DNA of 17,812 nucleotides from Promethearchaeota archaeon. GTDB lineage: Archaea > Asgardarchaeota > Thorarchaeia > Thorarchaeales > Thorarchaeaceae. Under the pieces are notes generated by a model. That model was not told the origin of the DNA, searched no databases, and saw only the letters and a list, made by a program, of their open reading frames with translations. Each line of letters begins with the position of its first letter. Within the stretch, counting starts at the first letter, position 1. The stretch covers positions 1,982 through 19,793 of the forward strand of contig JALVPN010000025.1 of the NCBI GenBank assembly GCA_027031765.1, in the 5' to 3' direction. Position numbers and translations under genes: made by a program. Below are positions 4,503 to 17,812 of this stretch, piece by piece.

Positions 4503-4994
4503 TTGGAGCAGGTGATTGTGGTCAGGGCAGAGCTATGTACCGGTTGTCGGGACTGCGAACTGGCGTGTTCGGTCCGACAGACCGGCACATTCAACCCCAG
4601 CAGGTCGAGGGTGCAGGTCATGAAGGACGAGACCACCGGCACCGTCCTGCCAGTACTGTGCCTACAGTGCGATGTCCCACTGTGTCGTCAAGCATGTCCC
4701 GTGGGGGCACTGGTGGAGGGGCCGGGTGGCGCGCTTACCGTGAGGGAGGACAGGTGCATCGGCTGTGGCTCTTGTGTTACAGCGTGTGTATATGGTGGGA
4801 TTGAGCTGGACCCAAAGACACGGCTCGCTGTCAAGTGTGACCTGTGTGGTGACGGCCCACCGGCATGCGTGGCCGCCTGTGAGTATGGGGCCCTCGAGCT
4901 ACAGGAGCGGGACAGGGGGCTTGTCGGACGACTTGACGGCGTCCGCACGGTCATGCGGGCGTACGGTGTTGGAGAGGAGGCGGTACGCAATTGA
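4503..4994 (+). CDS. 4x[4Fe-4S] electron-transfer protein (DmsB/CooF-like; probable AOR small subunit), 163 aa
   Basis: Four Cys groups: CTGCRDCELAC, CLQCDVPLCRQACP, CIGCGSCVTAC, CDLC..CVAAC. TTG start is the first start after an in-frame TGA at 4455. Its stop overlaps the AOR-1 start (TTGA). Confidence 0.93.
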   Translation: MEQVIVVRAELCTGCRDCELACSVRQTGTFNPSRSRVQVMKDETTGTVLPVLCLQCDVPLCRQACPVGALVEGPGGALTVREDRCIGCGSCVTACVYGGIELDPKTRLAVKCDLCGDGPPACVAACEYGALELQERDRGLVGRLDGVRTVMRAYGVGEEAVRN

Positions 4995-6940
4995 CGTTCC
5001 CATACAAGGGGTATGCAGGGAGGTACGTCGAGGTAGACCTGGGCTCACAGGACGTGAGCATAAAGGAGATGCGGAAGGACTGGGCACTGTACTACCTTGG
5101 CGGGACGGGCGTTGCAGCAAGGGTGTTGTGGGACAGGACGGGCCCCGACACTGCACCGCTCTCGCCTGACAGCGTGCTGGTCGTTGGGACAGGACCGCTC
5201 ACCGGGGTGATGTTCTCACCAGCAGGCCGGATGATGTTCGCTGCGAGGAGCCCGCTCACCGGGGTGTGGGGCGAGAGCCATGTCGGTGGGTTCTTTGGCC
5301 CCGAGATGAAGTTTGCCGGTTTCGACATGGTCGTGATAACCGGCCGGGCGGAGCACCCGGTCTACCTCCTGTTGCGGGACGGACACGCTGAGCTCCGTGA
5401 TGCCCGGCACCTGTGGGGCCGTGAGACCGACACGGTGACGTACATGCTCAGGGAGGAGCTCGGTGACCCGACCGTTGAGACCGCCGTGATTGGGCCTGCC
5501 GGGGAGAACCTTGTGGCATACGGTGCTGTGATAGTGGACATGTACCGTGCGGCAGGCCGCACCGGGATGGGCACGGTAATGGGCTCCAAGAACCTGAAGG
5601 CGGTGGTGGCCAGTGGCAGCCTGGGCCTTGAGGCACATGACATGGACGCTTACCTCAGGGCGAATGAGGTGGAGCTGCAGAGGCTCCGGGACCCACTGTG
5701 GGAGGCGTCCCTGGGCTCGCTCCGCAAGTACGGCACTACCGACCTCGTGGCGATAATCAATGAGATTGGACGGCTGCCGACGAAGAACCACTGGACCGGT
5801 TACTTTGAACGTGCCGACGAGATAGGGCCCGAGGCGATAGCGGAGAGGTACCGGCTGGCACAGGAGGCCTGTTTTGGCTGTCTGATAGGGTGCAAGTACG
5901 TGTACCGTATTGATAGTGGACGGTACCGCAGTGGGCCTGCTGGCGGGCCGGAGTACGAGACCCTGATGGCCTTTGGGTCGAACTGTCTGAACGCAGACCT
6001 CGAGTCCGTGATCTATCTGGGCCACAGGTGCGACCTGCTGGGGATGGACACCATTTCGTGTGGCAAGACAATCGGGTTCGCGATGGAGCTCTGGGAGAAG
6101 GGACTCCTGACGGCGGAGGACACCGGGGGCCTCGACCTCTCGTGGGGCAACACGGAGACGATGGCGGAACTTGTGGAACTGATTGCAAGGCGTGAGGGTA
6201 TTGGCGACCTGCTCGCGCGTGGTGTGAGGGAGGCTGCCGAGACTGTTGGTGGTGATGCGTGGAAGTACGCAGTCCACGTCAAGGGCCTTGAGGCATCCGG
6301 GCAGGACCCCAGGGCCCACCAGTCGATTGGACTCACCTATGCCACCAATGTCCGCGGTGCTGACCACCTGCGCAGTCTGTCAAGCCTTGAGGAGCTCGGG
6401 TACCCGGAGATTGTCATCCAGCGCTTCGGCAAGGAGAAGGCGGACGGGATCCTCGACATCATGTCACCACTGTACAAGGGCGAGCTGATAAAGGACGTTG
6501 AAGACCTGTACGCGCTCGTGGACTCGGCGGTGATATGCAAGTATGGTACCATGTGGCCGCCCGTATACTACTTCGACACGTTCACCAACATCATCCCGCC
6601 ACTGACCGGTATGACGGAGTGGGGCGACATGGCCTTCGTCCGCAGCGCTGCAGAGAGGACCTGTCACCTGCGACGCGCATACAACCACAGGCTGGGCCTG
6701 ACACGGGAGCACGAGACCCTGCCGAAGAGGCTGTTGGAGGAGCCAATGCCCACCGGGCCGGCCAAGGGTGGCCTGCCAGACCTCGACGTGATGCTTGACG
6801 AGTACTACCAGTACAGGGGTTGCGACAGGACGACAGGCCTCCCACTCCGCGGCACACTGGAACGGCTCGGCCTCTCAGACATTGCTGACGACCTTGAGAG
6901 GAGGGGCGTGCTCGCAGGCGGGCCGTCAGATACCTCATGA
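4991..6940 (+). CDS. aor: Tungstopterin aldehyde:ferredoxin oxidoreductase family protein (AOR-1), 649 aa
   Basis: RSPLTGVWGESHVGG, GRTGMGTVMGSKNLKAV, Fe-S motif CFGCLIGC plus distal Cys (VICKYG), GPEYET, CDLLGMDTIS, DPR, RGADH. Substrate not assignable. Confidence 0.95.
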   Translation: MTFPYKGYAGRYVEVDLGSQDVSIKEMRKDWALYYLGGTGVAARVLWDRTGPDTAPLSPDSVLVVGTGPLTGVMFSPAGRMMFAARSPLTGVWGESHVGGFFGPEMKFAGFDMVVITGRAEHPVYLLLRDGHAELRDARHLWGRETDTVTYMLREELGDPTVETAVIGPAGENLVAYGAVIVDMYRAAGRTGMGTVMGSKNLKAVVASGSLGLEAHDMDAYLRANEVELQRLRDPLWEASLGSLRKYGTTDLVAIINEIGRLPTKNHWTGYFERADEIGPEAIAERYRLAQEACFGCLIGCKYVYRIDSGRYRSGPAGGPEYETLMAFGSNCLNADLESVIYLGHRCDLLGMDTISCGKTIGFAMELWEKGLLTAEDTGGLDLSWGNTETMAELVELIARREGIGDLLARGVREAAETVGGDAWKYAVHVKGLEASGQDPRAHQSIGLTYATNVRGADHLRSLSSLEELGYPEIVIQRFGKEKADGILDIMSPLYKGELIKDVEDLYALVDSAVICKYGTMWPPVYYFDTFTNIIPPLTGMTEWGDMAFVRSAAERTCHLRRAYNHRLGLTREHETLPKRLLEEPMPTGPAKGGLPDLDVMLDEYYQYRGCDRTTGLPLRGTLERLGLSDIADDLERRGVLAGGPSDTS

Positions 6941-6950
6941 GGGGGGCACC

Positions 6951-8069
6951 GTGGCAGACCTCAGCGTTACCGTTGCTGGCCTGACGTTCAGGAACCCCGT
7001 GCTCACGGCGGCCGGCCCCACTTCAAGGGACGGCGCGACACTCATGAGGGCGGCCGCTGGGGGCGCTGGCGGTCTCGTCACCAAGACCGTGAGCACCCGG
7101 CCTGCAGAGGTACCAAGACCGAACATGGCGGCCCTTGAGCCCGGTGCGGGGGGCCTCAGGAAGGGGCTGCTCAACGCAGAGCTGTGGAGCGAGCTCCCTG
7201 TGGAGAGGTGGCTGGAGTCCGAGTATAGGGCGGCCCTGAGCACCGGGCTGACCGTAGTCGCGAGCATCGGGTACACCCCCGAAGAGGTCACAGCGCTCGC
7301 GCCCAGGGTGGTGGAGACCGGCGTCCATGCACTTGAGTTCAGCACGCACTATGTGGGCGGACATGCTGAGATAGCACGGGCACTCAGGGACGCCGTGGAT
7401 GTGCCCATCTTTGCAAAGCTCAGTCCGCATGTGGACGTCGTTGCCACTGCGCGTGCGGTGGAGGAGTATGTGGACGGCATCGTTGCGGTCAACACCTACG
7501 GGCCATGTCTTAGGATTGACATCGAGACGGCAACGCCAGTCCTCGGTGGGCCGGGGGGGCGCGGGTGGATGAGCGGGTCCGCACTACGACCAATCGCGCT
7601 CAGGTGTGTGGCTGACATAGCGCTGGCTGTGGACATCCCGGTGGTCGGTGTGGGCGGTGTCACCACTGGTGAGGATGCCATCGAGTTCTTCATGGCTGGT
7701 GCGTCAGCAGTACAGGTGTGTACGGCAGCGGTCACGTACGGGGACGGGGTCTACGGCCGCATTGCACAGCAGATCAGTGACTGGCTCGACAGTCACGGCT
7801 ACGACTCTGTTGACGACATCCGCGGGGCAGCACTGGAACACCTCGACCGTGGTGTGACGCTCAGCCCGCCACCAAGGGTGGACATGGAGCTGTGCACTCT
7901 GTGCGGTCTGTGTGCTAGGACATGTGTGTACGGCGCCGTCCTCGTCGACAGGGAGGCGCACGAGCTGCGCATAGACCCCGGGCGCTGTCAGGCATGTGGC
8001 ATGTGCATATCGGTCTGTCCCCACAGGGCACTGGGTGGCGTCACCATGGCCACACATGAGGACAGGTGA
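6951..8069 (+). CDS. PreA/dihydropyrimidine dehydrogenase- or DHODH-like FMN TIM barrel with a C-terminal 2x[4Fe-4S] domain and an atypical active-site loop, 372 aa
   Basis: FRNPVLTAAGP, GGLVTKT, LNAEL, FAKLSP, DGIVAVNT, MSGSALRPIALR, GVGGVTTGEDAIEFFMAGASAVQV; C-terminal CTLCGLCARTC and CQACGMCISVCP. Start set at GTG 6951, after GAGGGGGG and 10 nt past the AOR-1 stop. Confidence 0.88.
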   Translation: MADLSVTVAGLTFRNPVLTAAGPTSRDGATLMRAAAGGAGGLVTKTVSTRPAEVPRPNMAALEPGAGGLRKGLLNAELWSELPVERWLESEYRAALSTGLTVVASIGYTPEEVTALAPRVVETGVHALEFSTHYVGGHAEIARALRDAVDVPIFAKLSPHVDVVATARAVEEYVDGIVAVNTYGPCLRIDIETATPVLGGPGGRGWMSGSALRPIALRCVADIALAVDIPVVGVGGVTTGEDAIEFFMAGASAVQVCTAAVTYGDGVYGRIAQQISDWLDSHGYDSVDDIRGAALEHLDRGVTLSPPPRVDMELCTLCGLCARTCVYGAVLVDREAHELRIDPGRCQACGMCISVCPHRALGGVTMATHEDR

Positions 8070-8208: not shown

Positions 8209-9393
8209 CTATACGAACTGGACATCGTCGAGGCCGCTGGTGAGCCTCTCTGCACGCCTCCCGCTTACCACATAGTCGTTCTCAATCCTGACACCGCCGA
8301 CCTGACGCAGGTAGACCCCCGGCTCCACAGCCAGGACATGACCACGCTCCAGGCGGTCCGAGTACCTGTAGAAGGTCGGGAGCTCGTGGACGAACAGGCC
8401 GATGCCGTGGCCCAGGCTGTGGGTCATGCCCTCCTCGGCACGCGGGTTCAGGCGTGTTGAGTCGAAACCGTATCGTCTGAGGGTGTCATAGCAGGCCATA
8501 TTGACCTCATCCATAAGTGCGCCCTCGGAGAGTGCGTCGGCAGCGGCACTGTGTGCCTCACTGACCGCATCGAACATCCTGCGGAGCTCAGGGGGGACAC
8601 TACCACGGACAACAGTCCGTGTGACATCAGCCACGTATCGTTCCAGCTTCAGGCGCGGGAACACATCTATTATGATGGGCACCTCTGCGTGGAGTCTGTC
8701 ATCAGGCGAGCCGAGGTAGTGCCAGTCGAAGCCGAGGCGGCCGACAGCAACTATTGTGTCCTCTGCGGTCTCGGCACGGCGGTCGAGCAGGAAGTGGTCG
8801 AGGGCACTCTTGATGTCACCAACAGTGAGTGGCTGGCCGTCGCGCAGCAGGACCTTGTTGGGGCCGACGGTCGTCTCGGCAATCAGGTCGATGACATGCT
8901 GGACCGCCCCGATGGTCGCCCTGCCCGCCTTCCGGATCATCTCGACCTCGCGCGGTGACTTTGTGGCGCGGGCCTCTGTGAGCAGGTAGGGCACCACCTT
9001 GACCTTATAGCCGAGGTCCTGGAGCGCAACAAGGATGTGGGCCGGCAGGTGCGTGGGGACACCTATCACATCACCTGAGAAGAGCTCTTTCAGCACACTA
9101 CCAAAGACGGCAGCAGGGTCGTCCATCAGGCGTTTGTTCTCGGCTATCAGCTGCAGCATTATCTCGCTGGTGTCAAAGGTCCTGCGGACAGTGCTCTCTT
9201 TTCGGACCCTCTCAAGAGTGTTGAAGCCCGCTGCCACGACCGTGTCCTCGCCACGGTTGCGCAGGACTATGACCTCGTCGCTTGAACGGAAGCCCGTGAG
9301 CCAGAACACGTCAGGTGTCGTAAAGGCGTTCCCGTACATGAGGACAGCGTCAATGCCCGCCTCCTCCATGAGCCTGTCCAGGTCTTCAATCAC
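8209..9393 (-). CDS. M24B metallopeptidase (Xaa-Pro aminopeptidase/prolidase family), about 394 aa
   Basis: Metal ligands D (IIDVFP), D (YVADVTRT), H (HSLGHGIG), E (AVEPG), E (VRIEND), with an N-terminal creatinase-N-like domain. Start chosen at GTG 9393 (GGTGGA upstream, TATA-like element at 9442-9435) rather than 9483. Confidence 0.9.
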   Translation of the reverse strand: MIEDLDRLMEEAGIDAVLMYGNAFTTPDVFWLTGFRSSDEVIVLRNRGEDTVVAAGFNTLERVRKESTVRRTFDTSEIMLQLIAENKRLMDDPAAVFGSVLKELFSGDVIGVPTHLPAHILVALQDLGYKVKVVPYLLTEARATKSPREVEMIRKAGRATIGAVQHVIDLIAETTVGPNKVLLRDGQPLTVGDIKSALDHFLLDRRAETAEDTIVAVGRLGFDWHYLGSPDDRLHAEVPIIIDVFPRLKLERYVADVTRTVVRGSVPPELRRMFDAVSEAHSAAADALSEGALMDEVNMACYDTLRRYGFDSTRLNPRAEEGMTHSLGHGIGLFVHELPTFYRYSDRLERGHVLAVEPGVYLRQVGGVRIENDYVVSGRRAERLTSGLDDVQFV

Positions 9394-9434
9394 AGTGTCC
9401 ACCACAGCAGGTTGCGGCCACCCAGACCGGGGGG

Positions 9435-9449
9435 TATCAAAAGTGTTTC
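9435..9449 (-). promoter_or_regulatory. Candidate BRE/TATA for the M24 peptidase gene
   Basis: Minus strand GAAAC-AC-TTTTGATA about 42 nt upstream of GTG 9393. Confidence 0.4.
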
Positions 9450-9525
9450 TCTCGGGGCCTGAAAAGGCCACATACAGCATCACCCCATAGGACGAAACCT
9501 TCTCCCAGTCGGCCCTGACGGGCAG

Positions 9526-10413
9526 TCACAGGTAGGGGGCCATGCGTTGCTCGACATCATCACGTGATGGCACCACATACGGGCCGACCGTTTCAAGGTT
9601 GAAGGAGGCACAGGTCGCGCCGAAGAGGGCGGCCCGCCAGAGGTCATGGGTCATGGAGTACTCGACCAGCAGGCCGACCATATAGGTATCACCGCAGCCT
9701 GTGGCATCGACCACACGACGTGGGGGCACTGCCGGGATGTCCAGCCTCTCGTCGGCAGTGAACAGAGTGGAGCCCCTACGCTCTCTTGTCACGACAATGA
9801 TAGAGGGGCCAAGAGAGAGCAGGTACTCGACAGCTCCCGACTCGGAGCCACAGCCGGTGGAGAGCAGCAGTTCGTCCTCGTCAGCCTTCACCACGTCGAC
9901 GAGCGGCAGGTACTCCTCACGGTGCGGCCATTGGCCGTACACCACAGACCTGCCGTGGGCCGTACGGACGAAGCCCTGCACATCAAGGGAAACGAGGGCT
10001 CCGGAGCGACGCGCGCGTCTCAGACATGTGACACTGACCTCGTGGGCAGTGATGGGACAGAAGTGGACGCAGCTGGCGGAGAGGTGTCTGTCGGTCAGGT
10101 CTGTGGGGCGGACTGGGGGCGCCACTGCTTCGAGGCGCTGTAATCTCCTGCCAGAGGCATCGTACTCGTTCACGAAACGGGTGGTGTGGGGGCCCTCTAT
10201 GGTCATGCCACTGAGGTCGAGGCCGGAGGAACGCAGGGCGCGGGTGTACTCCTCCTCGAAGTCCAAGCCGACCTTGGTGACCACGGCCGTACCGGAGGTA
10301 CCGACCGCAGGGCCGAGCATGGCATAGGCGGGCCCGCCGCCGAGGACCTCGCGACGGAAGGTGGGTGTGATGACGAGGTCACGGCTCAGGTGTCCTACGA
10401 CGGTCAGGTCCAT
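9526..10413 (-). CDS. PfkB/ribokinase-family carbohydrate or nucleoside kinase, 295 aa
   Basis: N-terminal VVGHLSRD, LGGGPAY, VKADEDE, and the C-terminal anion-hole signature VDATGCGDTY. Confidence 0.92.
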   Translation of the reverse strand: MDLTVVGHLSRDLVITPTFRREVLGGGPAYAMLGPAVGTSGTAVVTKVGLDFEEEYTRALRSSGLDLSGMTIEGPHTTRFVNEYDASGRRLQRLEAVAPPVRPTDLTDRHLSASCVHFCPITAHEVSVTCLRRARRSGALVSLDVQGFVRTAHGRSVVYGQWPHREEYLPLVDVVKADEDELLLSTGCGSESGAVEYLLSLGPSIIVVTRERRGSTLFTADERLDIPAVPPRRVVDATGCGDTYMVGLLVEYSMTHDLWRAALFGATCASFNLETVGPYVVPSRDDVEQRMAPYL

Positions 10414-10823: not shown

Positions 10824-12212
10824 ATGAAGGGGCATGTCGACCTGGTGGTCAGGGATGCAAGGCTCCTGCTCGAGTCGGGACTGGTACGGGGGGGCGTTGC
10901 CGTCATGGACGGGAGGATATGCGCGGTCGCCACAGACGAGCACCTGCCGCCGGCGGACACCACCGTTGATGGACGCGGACGCATCCTGATGCCGGGCCTG
11001 ATTGACGCACACGCACACATCCACGACCCCGCAGCCCTTGACCACGAAGACTTCACCACCGGCTCAAGGGCGGCCGCTGCCGGCGGGGTGACCACGGTAA
11101 TAGACATGCCACTGACAAGCCAGCTCGACACTGTTGAGGCCCTCGAACAGCGCGTCAGGACAGGCGAGGAGATGTCCATTGTAGACTTTGGGCTCTACGC
11201 CGGGATGATGAGGCACGACAACGTGGCCATCATACCGCAGATGCTCGGACACGGAGTGGGCGGCTTCAAGGCGTTCACGTGCGAGCCGTACCGGGTAGAC
11301 TCGGGGGTCATCATGCGCCTGCTGAGTGAGGTCTCTGAGCACGGCGGACACCTCACTGTCCACGCTGAGGACCAGGGCGTGCTCGATGAGTTCGGTAGGG
11401 ACATGGACGGCGAGTGGGACGCACCGGTGAGCCATGCCCTCTCAAGGCCCGAGATAGCAGAACAGCTGGCAGTGCACGGGGTCATTGCCATTGCGAGGGC
11501 CACGGGCGGTCATGTCCACATAGCCCACGTGACCACACGTGGTGGCCTCCGCGAGGTGGAGCTGGGGCGGCTGCATGGGGTCAGGGTGACGACCGAGGTC
11601 TGTCCGCACCACCTTGTGTTCGACCGTGACCAGATGAACCGTTTCGGGCCGGTCAGCAAGATGACCCCACCGCTGAGGTCCAGGGAGGACAGGGCAGCGC
11701 TGTGGTCGGGCCTCCTCATGGGCTCGGTCAACATTGTAGTGAGCGACCACGCACCCTGCCCCCCTGACGAGAAGGAGGCCGGTCGGGACGACATCCGGGA
11801 GGCGTGGGCCGGTGTTGACGGTGTCCAGATGATACTGCGCGTCCTGCTGTCAGAGGGCATCAACAGGGGACGGTTGTCATTTGGGAGGCTGCTGCGTGCC
11901 ACTACACGTGACCCGGCCCGGCTCTTTGGCCTGTACCCGAAGAAGGGTGCCATCCGTGTCGGTGCAGATGCAGACCTTGTGCTCGTCGACCCCACGCTGG
12001 AACAGAAGGTCACGGCGGACATGATGTTCTCCAAGTGTGGCTGGACACTGTACGAGGGGCTGGTGATGAAGGGGGCGCCCGTGATGACATTTGTCCGTGG
12101 AGTCCCTGTCTTCGAGGACGACCGTACGACCGTAGCCCCAGGACACGGGCGCTTCCAGCCTGCGGGGTCGGGACTGACACGCGCCATGGGCCAGCCGGAT
12201 GTCCACCCGTGA
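10824..12212 (+). CDS. Cyclic amidohydrolase (allantoinase/hydantoinase/dihydroorotase family), 462 aa
   Basis: PGLIDAHAH, AAAGGVTTVIDMP, carbamylated-Lys strand GFKAF, HAED, HIAH, EVCPHHL, PPLR, SDHAP, GAIRVGADADLV; GAGGAGG upstream of the ATG. Confidence 0.93.
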   Translation: MKGHVDLVVRDARLLLESGLVRGGVAVMDGRICAVATDEHLPPADTTVDGRGRILMPGLIDAHAHIHDPAALDHEDFTTGSRAAAAGGVTTVIDMPLTSQLDTVEALEQRVRTGEEMSIVDFGLYAGMMRHDNVAIIPQMLGHGVGGFKAFTCEPYRVDSGVIMRLLSEVSEHGGHLTVHAEDQGVLDEFGRDMDGEWDAPVSHALSRPEIAEQLAVHGVIAIARATGGHVHIAHVTTRGGLREVELGRLHGVRVTTEVCPHHLVFDRDQMNRFGPVSKMTPPLRSREDRAALWSGLLMGSVNIVVSDHAPCPPDEKEAGRDDIREAWAGVDGVQMILRVLLSEGINRGRLSFGRLLRATTRDPARLFGLYPKKGAIRVGADADLVLVDPTLEQKVTADMMFSKCGWTLYEGLVMKGAPVMTFVRGVPVFEDDRTTVAPGHGRFQPAGSGLTRAMGQPDVHP

Positions 12213-12251: not shown

Positions 12252-12366
12252 CGCCGGCAGTAGGACAGGGGTACAGTGGCAGCCGGTGTCCAACAGAGGG
12301 GGCGGTGGCCGGCCCGCACACAGGCATAGGCCATTGCGGGCCCCCGTAGGGGACGTACAGGGGCCC

Positions 12367-14013
12367 CTAGACCGCAATCGGCTCGACCGTGATGCCCAGT
12401 GACCGGAGCCTTGTGGCCTCGTCGATGGGCTGACCAGTGTCAGGGTCGATTGCACGGCATGCGCCATCTATCATCCGTGTCCTGAGCTCACCGCGGGCAA
12501 CAGGGTTGTCACGCAAGTGCGGTGCATCGAGCACACCGGTCTCCACAGCACGGACGTAGGTGCGTGGGTCGGTCAGTGGGTCACGGGCGTCCTCTGGTGC
12601 GAGCGACGCGATTGCCCTGATGAGGACGCGTGCCTCCCGGACGAGCTCGTCCTTCCGCGCCCTGACAACCGGGTCGTGCAACGGGTCAGGCAGTCCCTGC
12701 AGGCAGTCATGGATCACACGGCGGGCAATCCGGCAGCTCTCGATGACCTCCTCGGCCGTGGCAGCATGGTCGGCTTCACAGAAGCCCACCACATGGACTA
12801 TGTGTGGTCGGAGCATCATGCCCGTGTGGACCGAGGCGGCGAGCTGGCCCTTGCCCATGTCAAGGTCTGGCGGGTACGAGAACAGGCCCGGCCGGATCTG
12901 GCGCACCGATGTGAAGGTGTGGTCGTGGAGGGACTCCACAAGCTCGATCTTGGCCAGCATCTTTGCCAGGTCCATCTGGGGTGAGGTGCCCAGAGGTGTA
13001 TTGAGCATGTACTGGGCCACGTAGTGCCTGACGCCAGCGGCCTTTGCATTGTATGCTGAGAGGTATGCCATTGCCACTGCAATGGTGTCATGGGCGCTCC
13101 GCAGGCTCCAGTGGTGCGGCTCGTTGAACTCCACGGGGATGCCGTGACGTGCGTGCCAGCGGTGGTTCTCCTGGTTCTCAGTGATGGCGTCGAGGAGTGG
13201 ACGGTCGCTGCGGCCGTCGAGGACGCTGTACCACATCAGTGGCGTTGCACACCACGCATTGTTGATGGTCTCCTTGAGCATCCTGGCCCACTTCAGCAGG
13301 TCCCGGGTGCCACTGTAGCACCTGAGGAGCGGGTAGTTTCCACGTCGTGACACCTCGTAGATGCGCCTCAGGTCTTCAGGGCTCCGTATGGGCACGCCGC
13401 CGTCGCCCTCGAGGTAGGGCCTCATCTCGTCAGGCCTGAAGAACGACGCCTGGGCGTTCTGGTCGGGGCCGAGGGAGATCACATCGAGGACTCCGCTCTC
13501 AGCAATCTTCGCCACACCCTCGACCGTTTCCTCAAGGGACGGCAGGCCGAAGTGGTGGCGCAGGACGGGCACGGGGCTCTTGACGACAATCCGGGTCATG
13601 AGGTCCTGCGGGTTGCGCTCTTCAGCAGGCATCGATGTCCTGCCACGCAGGTAGTCGACCACATCCTCGCGTGTCGAGAAGCCGGTGAATATCTGTTCGA
13701 ACAGCCCGGTCTTCTCGGCGACTGGTCTTATGGGGGCCGTGCAGCCCAGCACCCAGCGCTTGTGTTGTAGGCCCGCCTCTTCCACAGCGCTCTTGAGCTC
13801 TCTTAGCAGGCGCTCCGCACTCTCGACCGTCAGCCGATAGCTCACACCCACAACATCGGGGTCGTGTTCCTTGACCGCCTCGATGAGCCTCTCGATGGGT
13901 GTTGCTGGGCCCAGGAATATGGTCTCATGACCCTCCTGTTCCGCGAGGTCGAGGAACCCCAGCACTCCAGCGACATGCACACAGTTCCCGATTGCTGCAC
14001 CCAGGTACTTCAT
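12367..14013 (-). CDS. Cobalamin-dependent protein: N-terminal B12-binding domain fused to a glutamate-mutase-epsilon-like TIM barrel, 548 aa; substrate unknown
   Basis: N-terminus LGAAIGNCVHVAG...DVVGVSYRL...EAGL..WVLG has the base-off/His-on B12 pattern. The rest matches GlmE blocks by eye (RAVETGVLDAP vs KAFETGVMDIP; VHVVGFCEA vs VIVKTPHEA; YSGTRD vs RHGTPD). B12 binding is well supported; the mutase call is inference. Confidence 0.8.
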   Translation of the reverse strand: MKYLGAAIGNCVHVAGVLGFLDLAEQEGHETIFLGPATPIERLIEAVKEHDPDVVGVSYRLTVESAERLLRELKSAVEEAGLQHKRWVLGCTAPIRPVAEKTGLFEQIFTGFSTREDVVDYLRGRTSMPAEERNPQDLMTRIVVKSPVPVLRHHFGLPSLEETVEGVAKIAESGVLDVISLGPDQNAQASFFRPDEMRPYLEGDGGVPIRSPEDLRRIYEVSRRGNYPLLRCYSGTRDLLKWARMLKETINNAWCATPLMWYSVLDGRSDRPLLDAITENQENHRWHARHGIPVEFNEPHHWSLRSAHDTIAVAMAYLSAYNAKAAGVRHYVAQYMLNTPLGTSPQMDLAKMLAKIELVESLHDHTFTSVRQIRPGLFSYPPDLDMGKGQLAASVHTGMMLRPHIVHVVGFCEADHAATAEEVIESCRIARRVIHDCLQGLPDPLHDPVVRARKDELVREARVLIRAIASLAPEDARDPLTDPRTYVRAVETGVLDAPHLRDNPVARGELRTRMIDGACRAIDPDTGQPIDEATRLRSLGITVEPIAV

Positions 14014-15194
14014 GTCATGTCCACCTCCAGGTCGAAGGGCTCCCAGACTTCTGGCAACAGCACCTCCTCCTCCAGACGCATACCTGTCTGTACATATTCC
14101 ATCACGGCCTCCGGGGACATGCCGTGCAGGCCCATGCGTTCCAGTGTCCTGCCACTCATCCAGAAGGAGCGCTCGTACAGGTGGCAGGCCAAGTTCACCA
14201 CTGCTCTGATTGTCGGGGTGTCCACACCCACCAGCCTACCGAGATATGCGATTGGGACCAGGCCGGTGGGCACATCCTCAAGGACATAACGGTGTTCAAG
14301 AGACGACGGGCTGCCGATGTTGTTATAGACATCAGTGCTGCGGATGCACTCGTAGAGCGTTTTCCCACGGGCGTTGTAGGCCTCTCTGAACCAGTCTAGG
14401 AGCGAGGTCGCATGTACACCAAAGGCACGGGCCACCTCAACACGCTCTGCGTCCATCCGTTCGATGAGACGCCCCACAGTGGGGGATATCGCGTCATGGT
14501 AGTGGTTATACCCACCACCCCATGATTCCAGGAGACCAGCGTTCAGTATTGTCGGCGCAGGGTGTAGCATCGCACCCATGTTGTCTAGGCCGGTTTCCAT
14601 GACATCGTCTGCCGCACACAGTTTCAGTGGGACACCATCGAGCCGCCTGAGCATCTCGCGGGTGTCTGTTGCAGGGACAGCGCTGACACGTACCCTGCGC
14701 TTGACCTTTGACACACGCACTGAGTGGGGGCCTGTCGTCCGGGACACGAAGCAGTACGTCTGGGCCTCACCGACAATGACATCGTCAGGCGCCCTGTGAC
14801 GCGCGAGCACCTCTACGAACTCGAGTGCACCGCCGGTCCGGCCCGGCATCAGCAGCACCACCTGTCCGGGCTGGAGGTGCGGTGCGACCACGCGCGCCAT
14901 GAACGGGTGTCCCGTGGCGGGGACGGCCACGATGATGATGTCGCGACCCGCAATCGCCTCCTGTAGGTCGCCGGTGACCACTGAGAGCCTCGCATGGCCG
15001 TTGATGACACCCTCCACATCGAGGCCCCCATGTCTCGCGATGTCCCTGATGTTGTTGAACGTACGGTTGTAGAGCGACACATCAAGGCCCTGCAGTGCCA
15101 AGTAGCCTGCAAGTCCACGACCAGCATGACCACCACCGAGTACTGCCACCTTGCAGTCGCCGGTCTGTACTCTACGTCTACCCAGTCCGAACAC
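14010..15194 (-). CDS. NAD(P)-dependent opine (octopine/nopaline) dehydrogenase family protein, about 394 aa
   Basis: Rossmann motif VAVLGGGHAG, YNRT, PGRTGGALE, NMGAMLHPAPTILNAG, DAERVEVA, HRYVLEDVPTGLVP. Start set at GTG 15194, 9 nt after AGGAGGT. Its stop overlaps the B12 gene start (ATGA). Confidence 0.92.
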   Translation of the reverse strand: MFGLGRRRVQTGDCKVAVLGGGHAGRGLAGYLALQGLDVSLYNRTFNNIRDIARHGGLDVEGVINGHARLSVVTGDLQEAIAGRDIIIVAVPATGHPFMARVVAPHLQPGQVVLLMPGRTGGALEFVEVLARHRAPDDVIVGEAQTYCFVSRTTGPHSVRVSKVKRRVRVSAVPATDTREMLRRLDGVPLKLCAADDVMETGLDNMGAMLHPAPTILNAGLLESWGGGYNHYHDAISPTVGRLIERMDAERVEVARAFGVHATSLLDWFREAYNARGKTLYECIRSTDVYNNIGSPSSLEHRYVLEDVPTGLVPIAYLGRLVGVDTPTIRAVVNLACHLYERSFWMSGRTLERMGLHGMSPEAVMEYVQTGMRLEEEVLLPEVWEPFDLEVDMT

Positions 15195-15644: not shown

Positions 15645-16136
15645 ATGACAGGACTGCCCTTTGTGTTTGGCGACCCCCACGTGTGTACAGGTTGCATGAT
15701 CTGTGTCAGTGTCTGCAGCATGCACTACTACAGGGTGATAAGTCCGGAGCGCTCGCGGGTCAGAGTGGTCAGACTGGAAGGGGGCCTTGACTTCCCGCTG
15801 TTCTGTCGCAACTGTGAGGACGCCCCGTGTATCGAGGCATGCCCCGAGGACGCACTGGCCAGGACATCGAAAGGGGTGATAGTGGTGAACAGCCGCAGGT
15901 GTACAGGCTGTGGCAGTTGCGTCAGTGCATGTCCGTACTATGCTATCAGGGTCAACCCTGACACTGGGAAGGCCTTCAAGTGCATCCAGTGTGGCGAGTG
16001 CACGGCATGGTGTCCTGTAGGTGCGATATGGATGACCACAGGTGCAGACCTTGAGAAACGCGACCCCGATGGTAGGCTCCGTGGACTGTACGAGCTCCAC
16101 GCCAGTGAGATATACGACAAGGGGGAGGTACAGTGA
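15645..16136 (+). CDS. 4x[4Fe-4S] electron-transfer protein (probable AOR small subunit), about 163 aa
   Basis: CTGCMICVSVC, CRNCEDAPCIEACP, CTGCGSCVSACP, CIQCGECTAWCP. Start ATG 15645 (GTG 15630 is an alternative). Its stop overlaps the AOR-2 start (GTGA). Confidence 0.93.
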   Translation: MTGLPFVFGDPHVCTGCMICVSVCSMHYYRVISPERSRVRVVRLEGGLDFPLFCRNCEDAPCIEACPEDALARTSKGVIVVNSRRCTGCGSCVSACPYYAIRVNPDTGKAFKCIQCGECTAWCPVGAIWMTTGADLEKRDPDGRLRGLYELHASEIYDKGEVQ

Positions 16137-17812
16137 AGGGTGTCGGTGGCACAGTACTGTGGGTCGACCTGACCCGGCGAGAGATAGAGCGGCGCCCACT
16201 GGACGAGGGTATTGTCCGGGAATACCTGCTCGGTGCAGGGTACCTGTCCCGACTGTTGTACGACCTCATCCCAGAGGACACGGACCCCCTGTCCCCACGG
16301 AACGTGCTCGGCATTGCCACCGGGCTCCTCACAGGCTCGATGTTCCCACAGTCATCAAGGCATGTGGTCGCAGCACTGTCACCGCTGACAGACATATGGG
16401 GCGAGAGCCATGCGGCTGGGTTCTGGGGCGCAGAGCTCAAGCTCGCCGGGTACGATGCCATACTGTTCACAGGCGCGGCGTCGGGGCCGGTGTACCTGGA
16501 CATCCATGACGATGATGTTGCGCTGCTGGACGCCTCAGACCTGTGGGGCTGCGATGTCTTCGAGACCGACAGGCGCCTGCGCAGGCGTCACGGCAGGGCG
16601 TGCAGGGTCCTTGCTATCGGACAGGCGGGCGAGAACCTTGTGAGGTTCGCTGCAATAATGAACGACAGGGACAGGGCCTCTGCCAGATCCGGGCTTGGTG
16701 CCGTGATGGGGTCGAAGCGCCTGAAGGCGGTCTGTGTGCGGGGCACCGGCAAGATCGAGGTCGCCGAGCCGGAGGACTATCTCAGGCACATGTGGGGTCT
16801 CCACAGGCGGATGCTGGCGAACCCGTTCACGGCCGGCCGTGCAGAGTATGGGACGACAGGCCTCATCGAGCTGATGCAGCATATCGGGAGGCTCCCCAGC
16901 TACAACATGCGCCAGGGCGTGTTCGAGGGCGCTGACAGGATAGGTGGCCACGCCATCAACGAGAAGTACCTCGTCAAGCCGCGGGCCGACTGGTGCTGCC
17001 TGCAGAGGTGTGGCAGGTACACGGCCGTCCGGGAGGGGCCCTACAGGTACGAGGGCGGCTCCCCAGAGTTCGAGTCCCAGTCGTCACTTGGCTCCCGTTG
17101 TGGCAACGACAACCTCGAGTCGATACTCTATGCCCACCACCTTGCCAACATGTACGGCATGGACACGATTTCCCTTGGGGCGACAATATCGTGGGCGATG
17201 GAGGCGTGGGACGAGGGCCTGCTCACAGAGGAGGACACGGGTGGCCTCGACCTCTCATGGGGCAACCACGAGGTGATAGTCGGGCTGACCCGCATGATTG
17301 CGTTCCGTGAGGGCTTCGGCGACCTCCTTGCAGAGGGCAGCTACCGTGCGGCCCAGCGCATCGGCCGGGGCACAGAGAGGTTCGTGATGGCGGTCAAGAA
17401 GCAGGAAATCGCAGGTCAGGAACCAAGGGCACAGAAGTCGATGGGGCTGGCGGCAGTGACGGCAGCACGTGGGGCCGACCACCTCTATGGGTTCCCGGTC
17501 CTGGACGAGGTGGGCTTCGACGATGAGATAAAGGAGCGGTACGGGGAGGAGTACCTGCCCGAGATGGCAGACAGGCTGAGCCCACGCCACAAGGGGGTGA
17601 TGGTAGAGATGTCGGAGAACTTCATGGTGGTAGTGGAGAGCGTAGGCGTCTGCAAGTACGGCACGCAGATACCGCCGGAGTTCTACTATGACGACATCGC
17701 CCTGGCACTCAGGGTGCACAACGGGCTGCAGTTTACAGCGGAGGAGCTCGAGACCATTGGCAAGAGGATAGTGAACCTGAACCGGTTGTTCAACGTACGC
17801 AGGGGCGTACGA
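16133..17812 (+). CDS. aor: Tungstopterin aldehyde:ferredoxin oxidoreductase family protein (AOR-2), truncated at the window edge (560 codons seen)
   Basis: Manual translation open from GTG 16133 (GGAGGT upstream) to the window end: MKGVGGTVLWVDLT..., LSPLTDIWGESHAAG, RSGLGAVMGSKRLKAV, DWCCLQRC, SPEFES, NMYGMDTIS, EPR, RGADHL, GVCKYGT. Absent from the ORF track. Confidence 0.95.
   Translation, partial: MKGVGGTVLWVDLTRREIERRPLDEGIVREYLLGAGYLSRLLYDLIPEDTDPLSPRNVLGIATGLLTGSMFPQSSRHVVAALSPLTDIWGESHAAGFWGAELKLAGYDAILFTGAASGPVYLDIHDDDVALLDASDLWGCDVFETDRRLRRRHGRACRVLAIGQAGENLVRFAAIMNDRDRASARSGLGAVMGSKRLKAVCVRGTGKIEVAEPEDYLRHMWGLHRRMLANPFTAGRAEYGTTGLIELMQHIGRLPSYNMRQGVFEGADRIGGHAINEKYLVKPRADWCCLQRCGRYTAVREGPYRYEGGSPEFESQSSLGSRCGNDNLESILYAHHLANMYGMDTISLGATISWAMEAWDEGLLTEEDTGGLDLSWGNHEVIVGLTRMIAFREGFGDLLAEGSYRAAQRIGRGTERFVMAVKKQEIAGQEPRAQKSMGLAAVTAARGADHLYGFPVLDEVGFDDEIKERYGEEYLPEMADRLSPRHKGVMVEMSENFMVVVESVGVCKYGTQIPPEFYYDDIALALRVHNGLQFTAEELETIGKRIVNLNRLFNVRRGVR

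Follow-up and report, generated by a model that had tools for sequence, protein, structure and literature searches.

In glutamate mutase (GlmS/GlmE, EC 5.4.99.1), residues Arg66, Arg100 and Arg149 of GlmE form an arginine claw, Glu171 binds the substrate amino group and Glu330 contacts the adenosyl ribose. Here we analyze a gene of a Promethearchaeota archaeon (Thorarchaeales; contig JALVPN010000025.1 of assembly GCA_027031765.1, positions 1,982 to 19,793 of the forward strand, a stretch of 17,812 nucleotides referred to below as the window) whose product resembles glutamate mutase (Clostridium cochlearium, structures 1cb7, 1ccw, 1i9c and 6h9e; Escherichia coli O157, ECs_0762-0764) in its B12 Rossmann domain and GlmE-type barrel, in the order of its sequence blocks, in a counterpart of Glu330 and in the occurrence of GlmL in some relatives. 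Unlike GlmS/GlmE, the window protein is one chain with its B12 domain at the N-terminus, is only 15-17% identical to GlmE and stays below the Pfam cut-off, and it has Tyr in place of Arg149, a small variable residue in place of Glu171 and Cys in place of the Asp of the DxHxxG motif. Its partner is an opine dehydrogenase, not methylaspartase.

Lysine 5,6-aminomutase and ornithine 4,5-aminomutase (KamDE/OraSE; 1xrs, 8t0v, 3kow) fall into the same clade of adenosylcobalamin (AdoCbl) TIM-barrel enzymes (Z 27-31), and in their pathways an NAD(P)-dependent dehydrogenase then acts on a C-N bond. They differ from the window mutase, which has no conserved pyridoxal phosphate (PLP) lysine, another domain order and subunit structure, and an opine dehydrogenase as its partner. 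That dehydrogenase is similar over its full length, with a conserved triad, to N-(1-D-carboxyethyl)-L-norvaline dehydrogenase (CENDH) of Arthrobacter sp. 1C (1bg6), and unlike the latter its gene appears to be translationally coupled to that of a B12 enzyme.

The window mutase belongs to a family that was predicted by Zhang, Rodionov, Gelfand and Gladyshev (BMC Genomics 2009, PMC2667541) as a new family of B12-dependent proteins. By their account, the family had a distant N-terminal B12-binding domain, always adjoined a pfam02317 octopine/nopaline dehydrogenase and, in several organisms, lay near genes for D-Ala-D-Ala ligase and asparagine synthase; it comprised 11 bacteria and no archaea, its GlmE-type barrel was not recognized and no reaction was assigned. 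The family as described here shares the N-terminal B12 domain, the pfam02317 neighbor and the nearby D-Ala-D-Ala ligase and asparagine synthase genes, and goes beyond the 2009 account in its GlmE-type barrel and in its presence in at least 590 species genomes, Asgard archaea included. No later characterization of the family was found in the literature searched.

We propose, with a probability of roughly 0.55, that the gene product belongs to the glutamate-mutase lineage and is an AdoCbl-dependent radical isomerase, single-chain and His-on, which would form a two-enzyme unit with the opine dehydrogenase and act on a substrate other than free glutamate. The gene and its domains are located in the window as follows:

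12367..14013 (stop codon included), minus strand: single-chain B12 mutase-like gene (P0001), 548 aa, from the open reading frame (ORF) list and translation, Pfam, the AlphaFold2 (AF2) model and fold matches to GlmE
13639..14013, minus strand: B12-binding Rossmann domain, residues 1-125, cap-less and beginning at residue 2, from PF02310 and model superposition
12370..13569, minus strand: GlmE-like TIM barrel and C-terminal lid, residues 149-548, from VIA-align against 1cb7_B and hhalign (78%)

Pfam assigns residues 2-76 to PF02310 (E 5e-11; 42.9 bits, cut-off 32.1), and the match of PF06368 (GlmE) to residues 311-524 remains below threshold at 22.2 bits against 26.6, with the same outcome on the genome; no NCBIfam model fits the protein. 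The AF2 model, built from 23 family members with a mean predicted local distance difference test score of 92.5 and a predicted template modelling score of 0.80, consists of a Rossmann domain (1-125), a linker of lower confidence, a beta/alpha barrel and a C-terminal lid. In superpositions, residues 1-126 match Rossmann domains of corrinoid proteins (2yxb with Z 16.3 and a root-mean-square deviation (rmsd) of 1.9; 4jgi_B with Z 16.5; also 1y80 and 7xcn_M with Z about 16).

For the model, the top PDB matches in Foldseek were the GlmE chains 1cb7_B and 6h9e_B (E 2.6e-16), followed by lysine 5,6-aminomutase, ornithine 4,5-aminomutase and acyl-CoA mutases. VIA-align placed the barrel on 1cb7_B with Z 32.1 and an rmsd of 3.1 Å, aligning 376 of 483 residues and pairing model residues 130-535 with chain residues 40-440; the other barrels gave Z 30.6 (KamD), 27.2 (OraE) and 22 (methylmalonyl-CoA mutase, MCM). 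When the family and two sister subfamilies were compared with a GlmE alignment by hhalign, the two matched in the same order over 403 columns (probability 78%, E 1.9e-5), and a simpler run concurred across the C-terminal two thirds of the barrel. At the sequence level, PDB searches with the protein or with the family profile found B12 domains alone and in no case GlmE; likewise, no alignment was significant when a hidden Markov model of 15 close GlmE sequences was used. The anatomy of a B12 domain joined to a GlmE-type barrel is right, well past chance.

A sequence-only reading of the window had already described the gene at 12367-14013, with residues 1-125 as a B12-binding domain and a GlmE-like barrel behind it in a single-chain sigma+epsilon layout. 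All of this is borne out, with the minus strand, which that reading left unstated, now added. Of the ordered GlmE blocks that it listed, both hhalign runs recover RCYSGTRD/RHGTPD, GIPVEFNEP/GIRINREP, VHVVGFCEA/VITKSPHEA and AVETGVLDAP/AFEAGVLDVP. It had also expected automated annotation to halt at a B12-binding protein, and the names given to the family in databases are "B12-binding protein", "methionine synthase" and "MCM cobalamin-binding subunit". The 2009 prediction of the family was not known to it.

The Z scores of KamD and OraE come close to that of GlmE and favor an aminomutase of the lysine 5,6-/ornithine 4,5- type, which would shift an amino group and leave the new C-N bond to the dehydrogenase, as with Ord and Kdd. 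In the fermentation of ornithine and lysine, an aminomutase is followed by an NAD-dependent C-N dehydrogenase (Ord, Kdd), and the combination of a mutase with a dehydrogenase would agree with this logic. However, no invariant or near-invariant Lys is present in residues 1-125, where the PLP lysine is located in KamDE/OraSE, only 333 residues could be aligned compared to 376 for GlmE, the block-wise sequence matches point to GlmE and no PLP-related gene is conserved nearby. We thus regard an aminomutase as improbable.

The individual residues on which the cofactor and the substrate site are discussed are encoded at the following positions:

12775..12777, minus strand: E413 codon, counterpart of GlmE Glu330 (adenosyl ribose contact), from hhalign and conservation
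13315..13317, minus strand: Y233 codon at the GlmE Arg149 position, with the invariant R231 two residues earlier, from hhalign and conservation
13966..13983, minus strand: lower-ligand loop C11-V-H13-V-A-G16 (canonical DxHxxG), from the alignment of the family

Two hhalign runs place GlmE Glu330 on E413, and this column is Glu in 26 of 27 core, 16 of 17 long and all 3 MutL-fused members (45 of 47 superfamily sequences), in agreement with the Glu330 equivalent named in the sequence-only reading. Neither Pfam nor the AF2 model shows a cap domain N-terminal to the B12 domain, which starts at residue 2. In 3 of 80 orthologous loci (L028, L056 and L076), the gene immediately after the mutase encodes a homologue of GlmL, with 33-37% identity to the E. 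coli protein, and GlmL is fused to the sister proteins P0152, P0158, P0159 and P0393 (826-1266 aa). Among the longer fused forms searched, the only fusion seen was that to GlmL, and none involved a dehydrogenase. The host genome (95% complete) encodes a CobA-type adenosyltransferase, two MCM large subunits and one small B12 subunit; thus, AdoCbl should be available in the host. Taken together, the missing cap domain, the GlmL links, the CobA-type adenosyltransferase and the retained E413 favor AdoCbl as the cofactor, and the earlier preference for AdoCbl chemistry over methyl transfer is supported. As a separate observation, the sister protein P0133 carries a fused ATP-grasp domain of the glutathione-synthetase type instead.

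The cofactor evidence also bears on the "methionine synthase" names, which would imply a corrinoid methyl carrier or methyltransferase. The best sequence matches of the B12 domain are in fact corrinoid proteins of methyltransferase systems (4jgi, 7xcn_M, MtgC, MtbC), and pterin-binding barrels reach Z about 16. Proteins of the MetH and MtaC type, however, have a helical cap that is missing here, the barrel fits AdoCbl mutases (Z 20-32) far better than methyltransferase-type barrels, the family is linked to GlmL, and no methyltransferase partner is conserved adjacent to it. A role in methyl transfer is therefore very improbable, and the three rivals of the proposed isomerase become progressively less likely from a diverged glutamate mutase, weighed below, through a PLP aminomutase to a methyl carrier.

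We then mapped the GlmE substrate site, its residue numbers being tied to 6h9e_B by way of GlmE from the annotated glm operon of E. coli O157. In two hhalign runs, Arg149 falls on the invariant Y233, and hhalign further pairs Glu171 with C255 and Lys326 with V409. The Glu171 column is occupied by Cys, Ala, Gly or Ser in the core family, by His or Gln in the long subfamily and by Pro in the MutL-fused forms. The pairing of Arg100 with Q188 was seen solely in a low-confidence global alignment, and an hhalign run limited to the N-terminal half of the barrel gave no equivalents of Arg66 or Arg100. Residues conserved through the three subfamilies are E413, R152, H154, Y233, R268, E295, R305, R374 and H407. 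On the strands that carry Arg66 and Arg149, invariant arginines (R152 and R231, respectively) occur two positions ahead of these claw residues, and R268, R305 and R374 are likewise unchanged in all three subfamilies. As R152, R231, R268, R305 and R374 are all invariant, the pocket appears to be remodelled yet still strongly cationic, and not free of arginines. A small residue at the Glu171 position would be compatible with room for an N-substituent.

On these grounds, the sequence-only reading, in which the three claw arginines were replaced by His, Gln and Tyr and glutamate was an unlikely substrate, is partly supported in its interpretation, its observation of the gene being confirmed. The Tyr stands; the Gln depends on the low-confidence alignment, and the His (His154 for Arg66) falls in the poorly aligned beta1 region. 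Its conclusion on glutamate is plausible in view of the Tyr at Arg149, the small residue at Glu171 and the failure to find a methylaspartase, and is tempered by the invariant arginines. It had further noted that the window holds no GlmL and no methylaspartate ammonia-lyase, and none was found there or in the 95%-complete genome.

The same residues are what one would weigh for a highly diverged fused glutamate mutase, which would convert glutamate to (2S,3S)-3-methylaspartate and pass this product to the dehydrogenase for condensation with a keto acid. GlmE is the best structural match, the Glu330 counterpart is kept, GlmL stands beside some orthologues, and R152 and R231, on the strands of Arg66 and Arg149, might re-form a claw. 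In contrast, the low identity and the sub-threshold PF06368 match, the loss of Arg149 to Tyr and of Glu171 to a small variable residue, the failure to find methylaspartase (PF07476) in the 95%-complete host genome, and a set of conserved residues unlike that of GlmE all speak against it. We consider such an enzyme unlikely, and free glutamate is probably not the substrate.

The second half of the proposed unit, and the sequence elements around the pair, are located as follows:

14010..15194, minus strand: opine dehydrogenase gene, CENDH type, 394 aa from the GTG at 15194, by its 1bg6_A match and PF02317
14010..14028, minus strand: ATGA stop/start overlap (14010-14013) with a GGAGGTG ribosome-binding-like site (14022-14028), from the sequence
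12338..12366, minus strand: GC-rich 11-bp hairpin immediately 3' of the mutase stop, RNA fold -28.4 kcal/mol, z -2.5

The partner dehydrogenase matches Arthrobacter CENDH (1bg6_A) over its full length with E 1.7e-74 and PF02317 with E 7e-44. Its catalytic His202, Arg292 and Asp297 are retained, and the triad is invariant in 24 orthologues, as H211/R302/D307 of their alignment. Judged by its sequence, the upstream gene is a true CENDH-type opine dehydrogenase, and the ATGA overlap and the GGAGGTG site suggest that it is co-transcribed with the mutase and translationally coupled to it. The pairing is also observed elsewhere: of 76 loci taken from species genomes of many anaerobic bacteria and archaea, 62 have the dehydrogenase gene directly upstream of the mutase in the same orientation, the majority of the operons hold these two genes alone, and an Octopine_DH gene likewise precedes the mutase in the locus of a 37%-identical sister protein. 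A structure prediction for the complex of the two proteins returned no answer (score 0.00) and weighs neither way.

The genes that join the pair less often are an AsnB-like gene (22 loci, immediately downstream), a Ddl-like ATP-grasp ligase (12 loci) and TldD/PmbA, which occur together in a few cases. In the host genome, neither the AsnB-like nor the Ddl-like gene was found in a convincing copy. A conserved small carrier or precursor peptide after the mutase was considered and dropped, as the 79-aa ORFs in two loci are mutually unrelated and the one in Caldanaerobacter corresponds to the N-terminus of the AsnB-like gene, detached from the rest. In that locus (L099:11727-13208), the AsnB-like gene downstream of the mutase appears to be split; its N-terminal piece starts LAG at the place of the catalytic Cys of asparagine synthases, pointing to an enzyme whose glutaminase is dead.

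In bacteria, the pair is linked to a riboswitch. Of 10 Firmicutes loci, 6 carry a full-length cyclic di-AMP (c-di-AMP) riboswitch (RF00379) immediately on the 5' side of the dehydrogenase gene, at 89-117 bits against the Rfam cut-off of 38. A model built from these riboswitches detected the leader in 23 of 82 loci, every time on the operon strand and at the same position, in genomes of Firmicutes, Armatimonadota and Limnochordales.

L033:6651-6783, L029:6656-6787, L018:6595-6769, L027:6663-6809, L022:6598-6765, L072:6660-6787 and 17 further loci, operon strand: c-di-AMP riboswitch aptamers, RF00379

Riboswitches of this class are OFF switches on genes for potassium uptake, osmolyte transport and the cell wall. 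Therefore, the pair is probably induced at low c-di-AMP in bacteria, and in consequence its product, an anionic compatible solute for instance, probably has to do with potassium or osmotic balance.

Under the proposed AdoCbl isomerase, the mutase and its translationally coupled CENDH-type dehydrogenase would constitute an obligate two-enzyme unit. Homolysis of the Co-C bond would yield a 5'-deoxyadenosyl radical, positioned by E413; the radical would take a hydrogen from a polyanionic substrate of the amino-acid type, held by Arg, His and Tyr residues that are invariant in the barrel, and a 1,2-rearrangement would follow. In bacteria, a low level of c-di-AMP would turn the pair on, and in the archaeon of the window the pair would operate alone, without this RNA switch. 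The more likely substrate would be an acidic amino acid, N-carboxyalkylated (opine-type) or modified in another way, that the dehydrogenase makes or consumes. The architecture, the fold, the conserved residues, the gene pairing and the riboswitch linkage are observed here, and the form of the cofactor, the type of reaction, the substrate class and the physiological role are inferred. A more specific and quite tentative proposal is that the mutase acts on the opine (an acidic amino acid with an N-carboxyalkyl group) or the imine made by its partner, not on a free amino acid, and that the product is a new anionic solute made by bacteria when c-di-AMP falls and also by Asgard archaea. If true, this would be the first known AdoCbl enzyme to rearrange a secondary-amine polycarboxylate.

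Several points weigh against the proposed isomerase. In the DxHxxG motif, His13 and Gly16 are retained, and the Asp position is Cys11 in the window protein, Cys in 115 of 130 full-length core members (88%) and Asp in 3. This Asp matters for catalysis in glutamate mutase; cofactor handling may therefore differ here. The sister subfamily of about 620 aa retains the Asp in 14 of 17 members, so the ancestor would have had a normal His-on motif. Strands beta1-beta2 of the barrel align to GlmE with low confidence, and the Arg66 counterpart is thus not placeable. Neither GlmL (PF13941) nor a PduO-type adenosyltransferase was found in the 95%-complete host genome. The riboswitch link is bacterial only, with no riboswitch in the window or in the seven archaeal loci. 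Finally, the literature searched yielded no biochemical data for any member of the family.

The family is large, with more than 7,900 clusters at 90% identity and 814 representatives at 50% identity, and the species genomes that carry it are both archaeal and bacterial, ranging from Asgard archaea to Clostridia and Bacteroidota. Carriers include Thorarchaeota, Theionarchaea, Bathyarchaeia, Thermoanaerobacter, Caldanaerobacter and Tepidanaerobacter, as well as Tissierellia, Aminicenantes, Bacteroidales, Ignavibacteria and others. In the phylum of the window itself, its distribution is patchy, with 78 of 201 sampled genomes positive. The long sister subfamily of about 620 aa (the P0164-P0266 set, e.g. 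L096:4898-6772) shares about 35% identity with the window protein, likewise follows an Octopine_DH gene and probably has another substrate specificity. Haloferax volcanii, a genetically tractable archaeon, gave sub-threshold matches to PF06368 (GlmE) and PF13941 (MutL) and may hold a distant relative.

The window contains further genes around the pair:

4991-6940, plus strand: aldehyde:ferredoxin oxidoreductase (tungsten AOR family)
6795-8069: PreA/DHODH-like flavoprotein with a 2x[4Fe-4S] tail, after the first aldehyde:ferredoxin oxidoreductase
8209-9483, minus strand: M24 creatinase/prolidase-like peptidase
9526-10413, minus strand: PfkB-family kinase
10824-12212, plus strand: cyclic amidohydrolase, allantoinase/hydantoinase-like, slightly below the allantoinase cut-off
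16133-17812, plus strand: second aldehyde:ferredoxin oxidoreductase (tungsten AOR family), running off the window end

The amidohydrolase, the M24 peptidase, the PfkB kinase and the aldehyde:ferredoxin oxidoreductases were considered as parts of the system and rejected, as they are not conserved beside the pair elsewhere.

Very few AdoCbl isomerase reactions are known, and 17 years after the first prediction of this large family no reaction has been assigned to it. The constant association with an opine dehydrogenase and the c-di-AMP riboswitches hint at a hitherto undescribed small-molecule pathway linked to potassium and osmotic balance in anaerobes. Solving the reaction would bring a reaction new to B12 chemistry, perhaps together with an undescribed solute class, and would mend thousands of misleading names such as "methionine synthase" and "MCM cobalamin-binding subunit".

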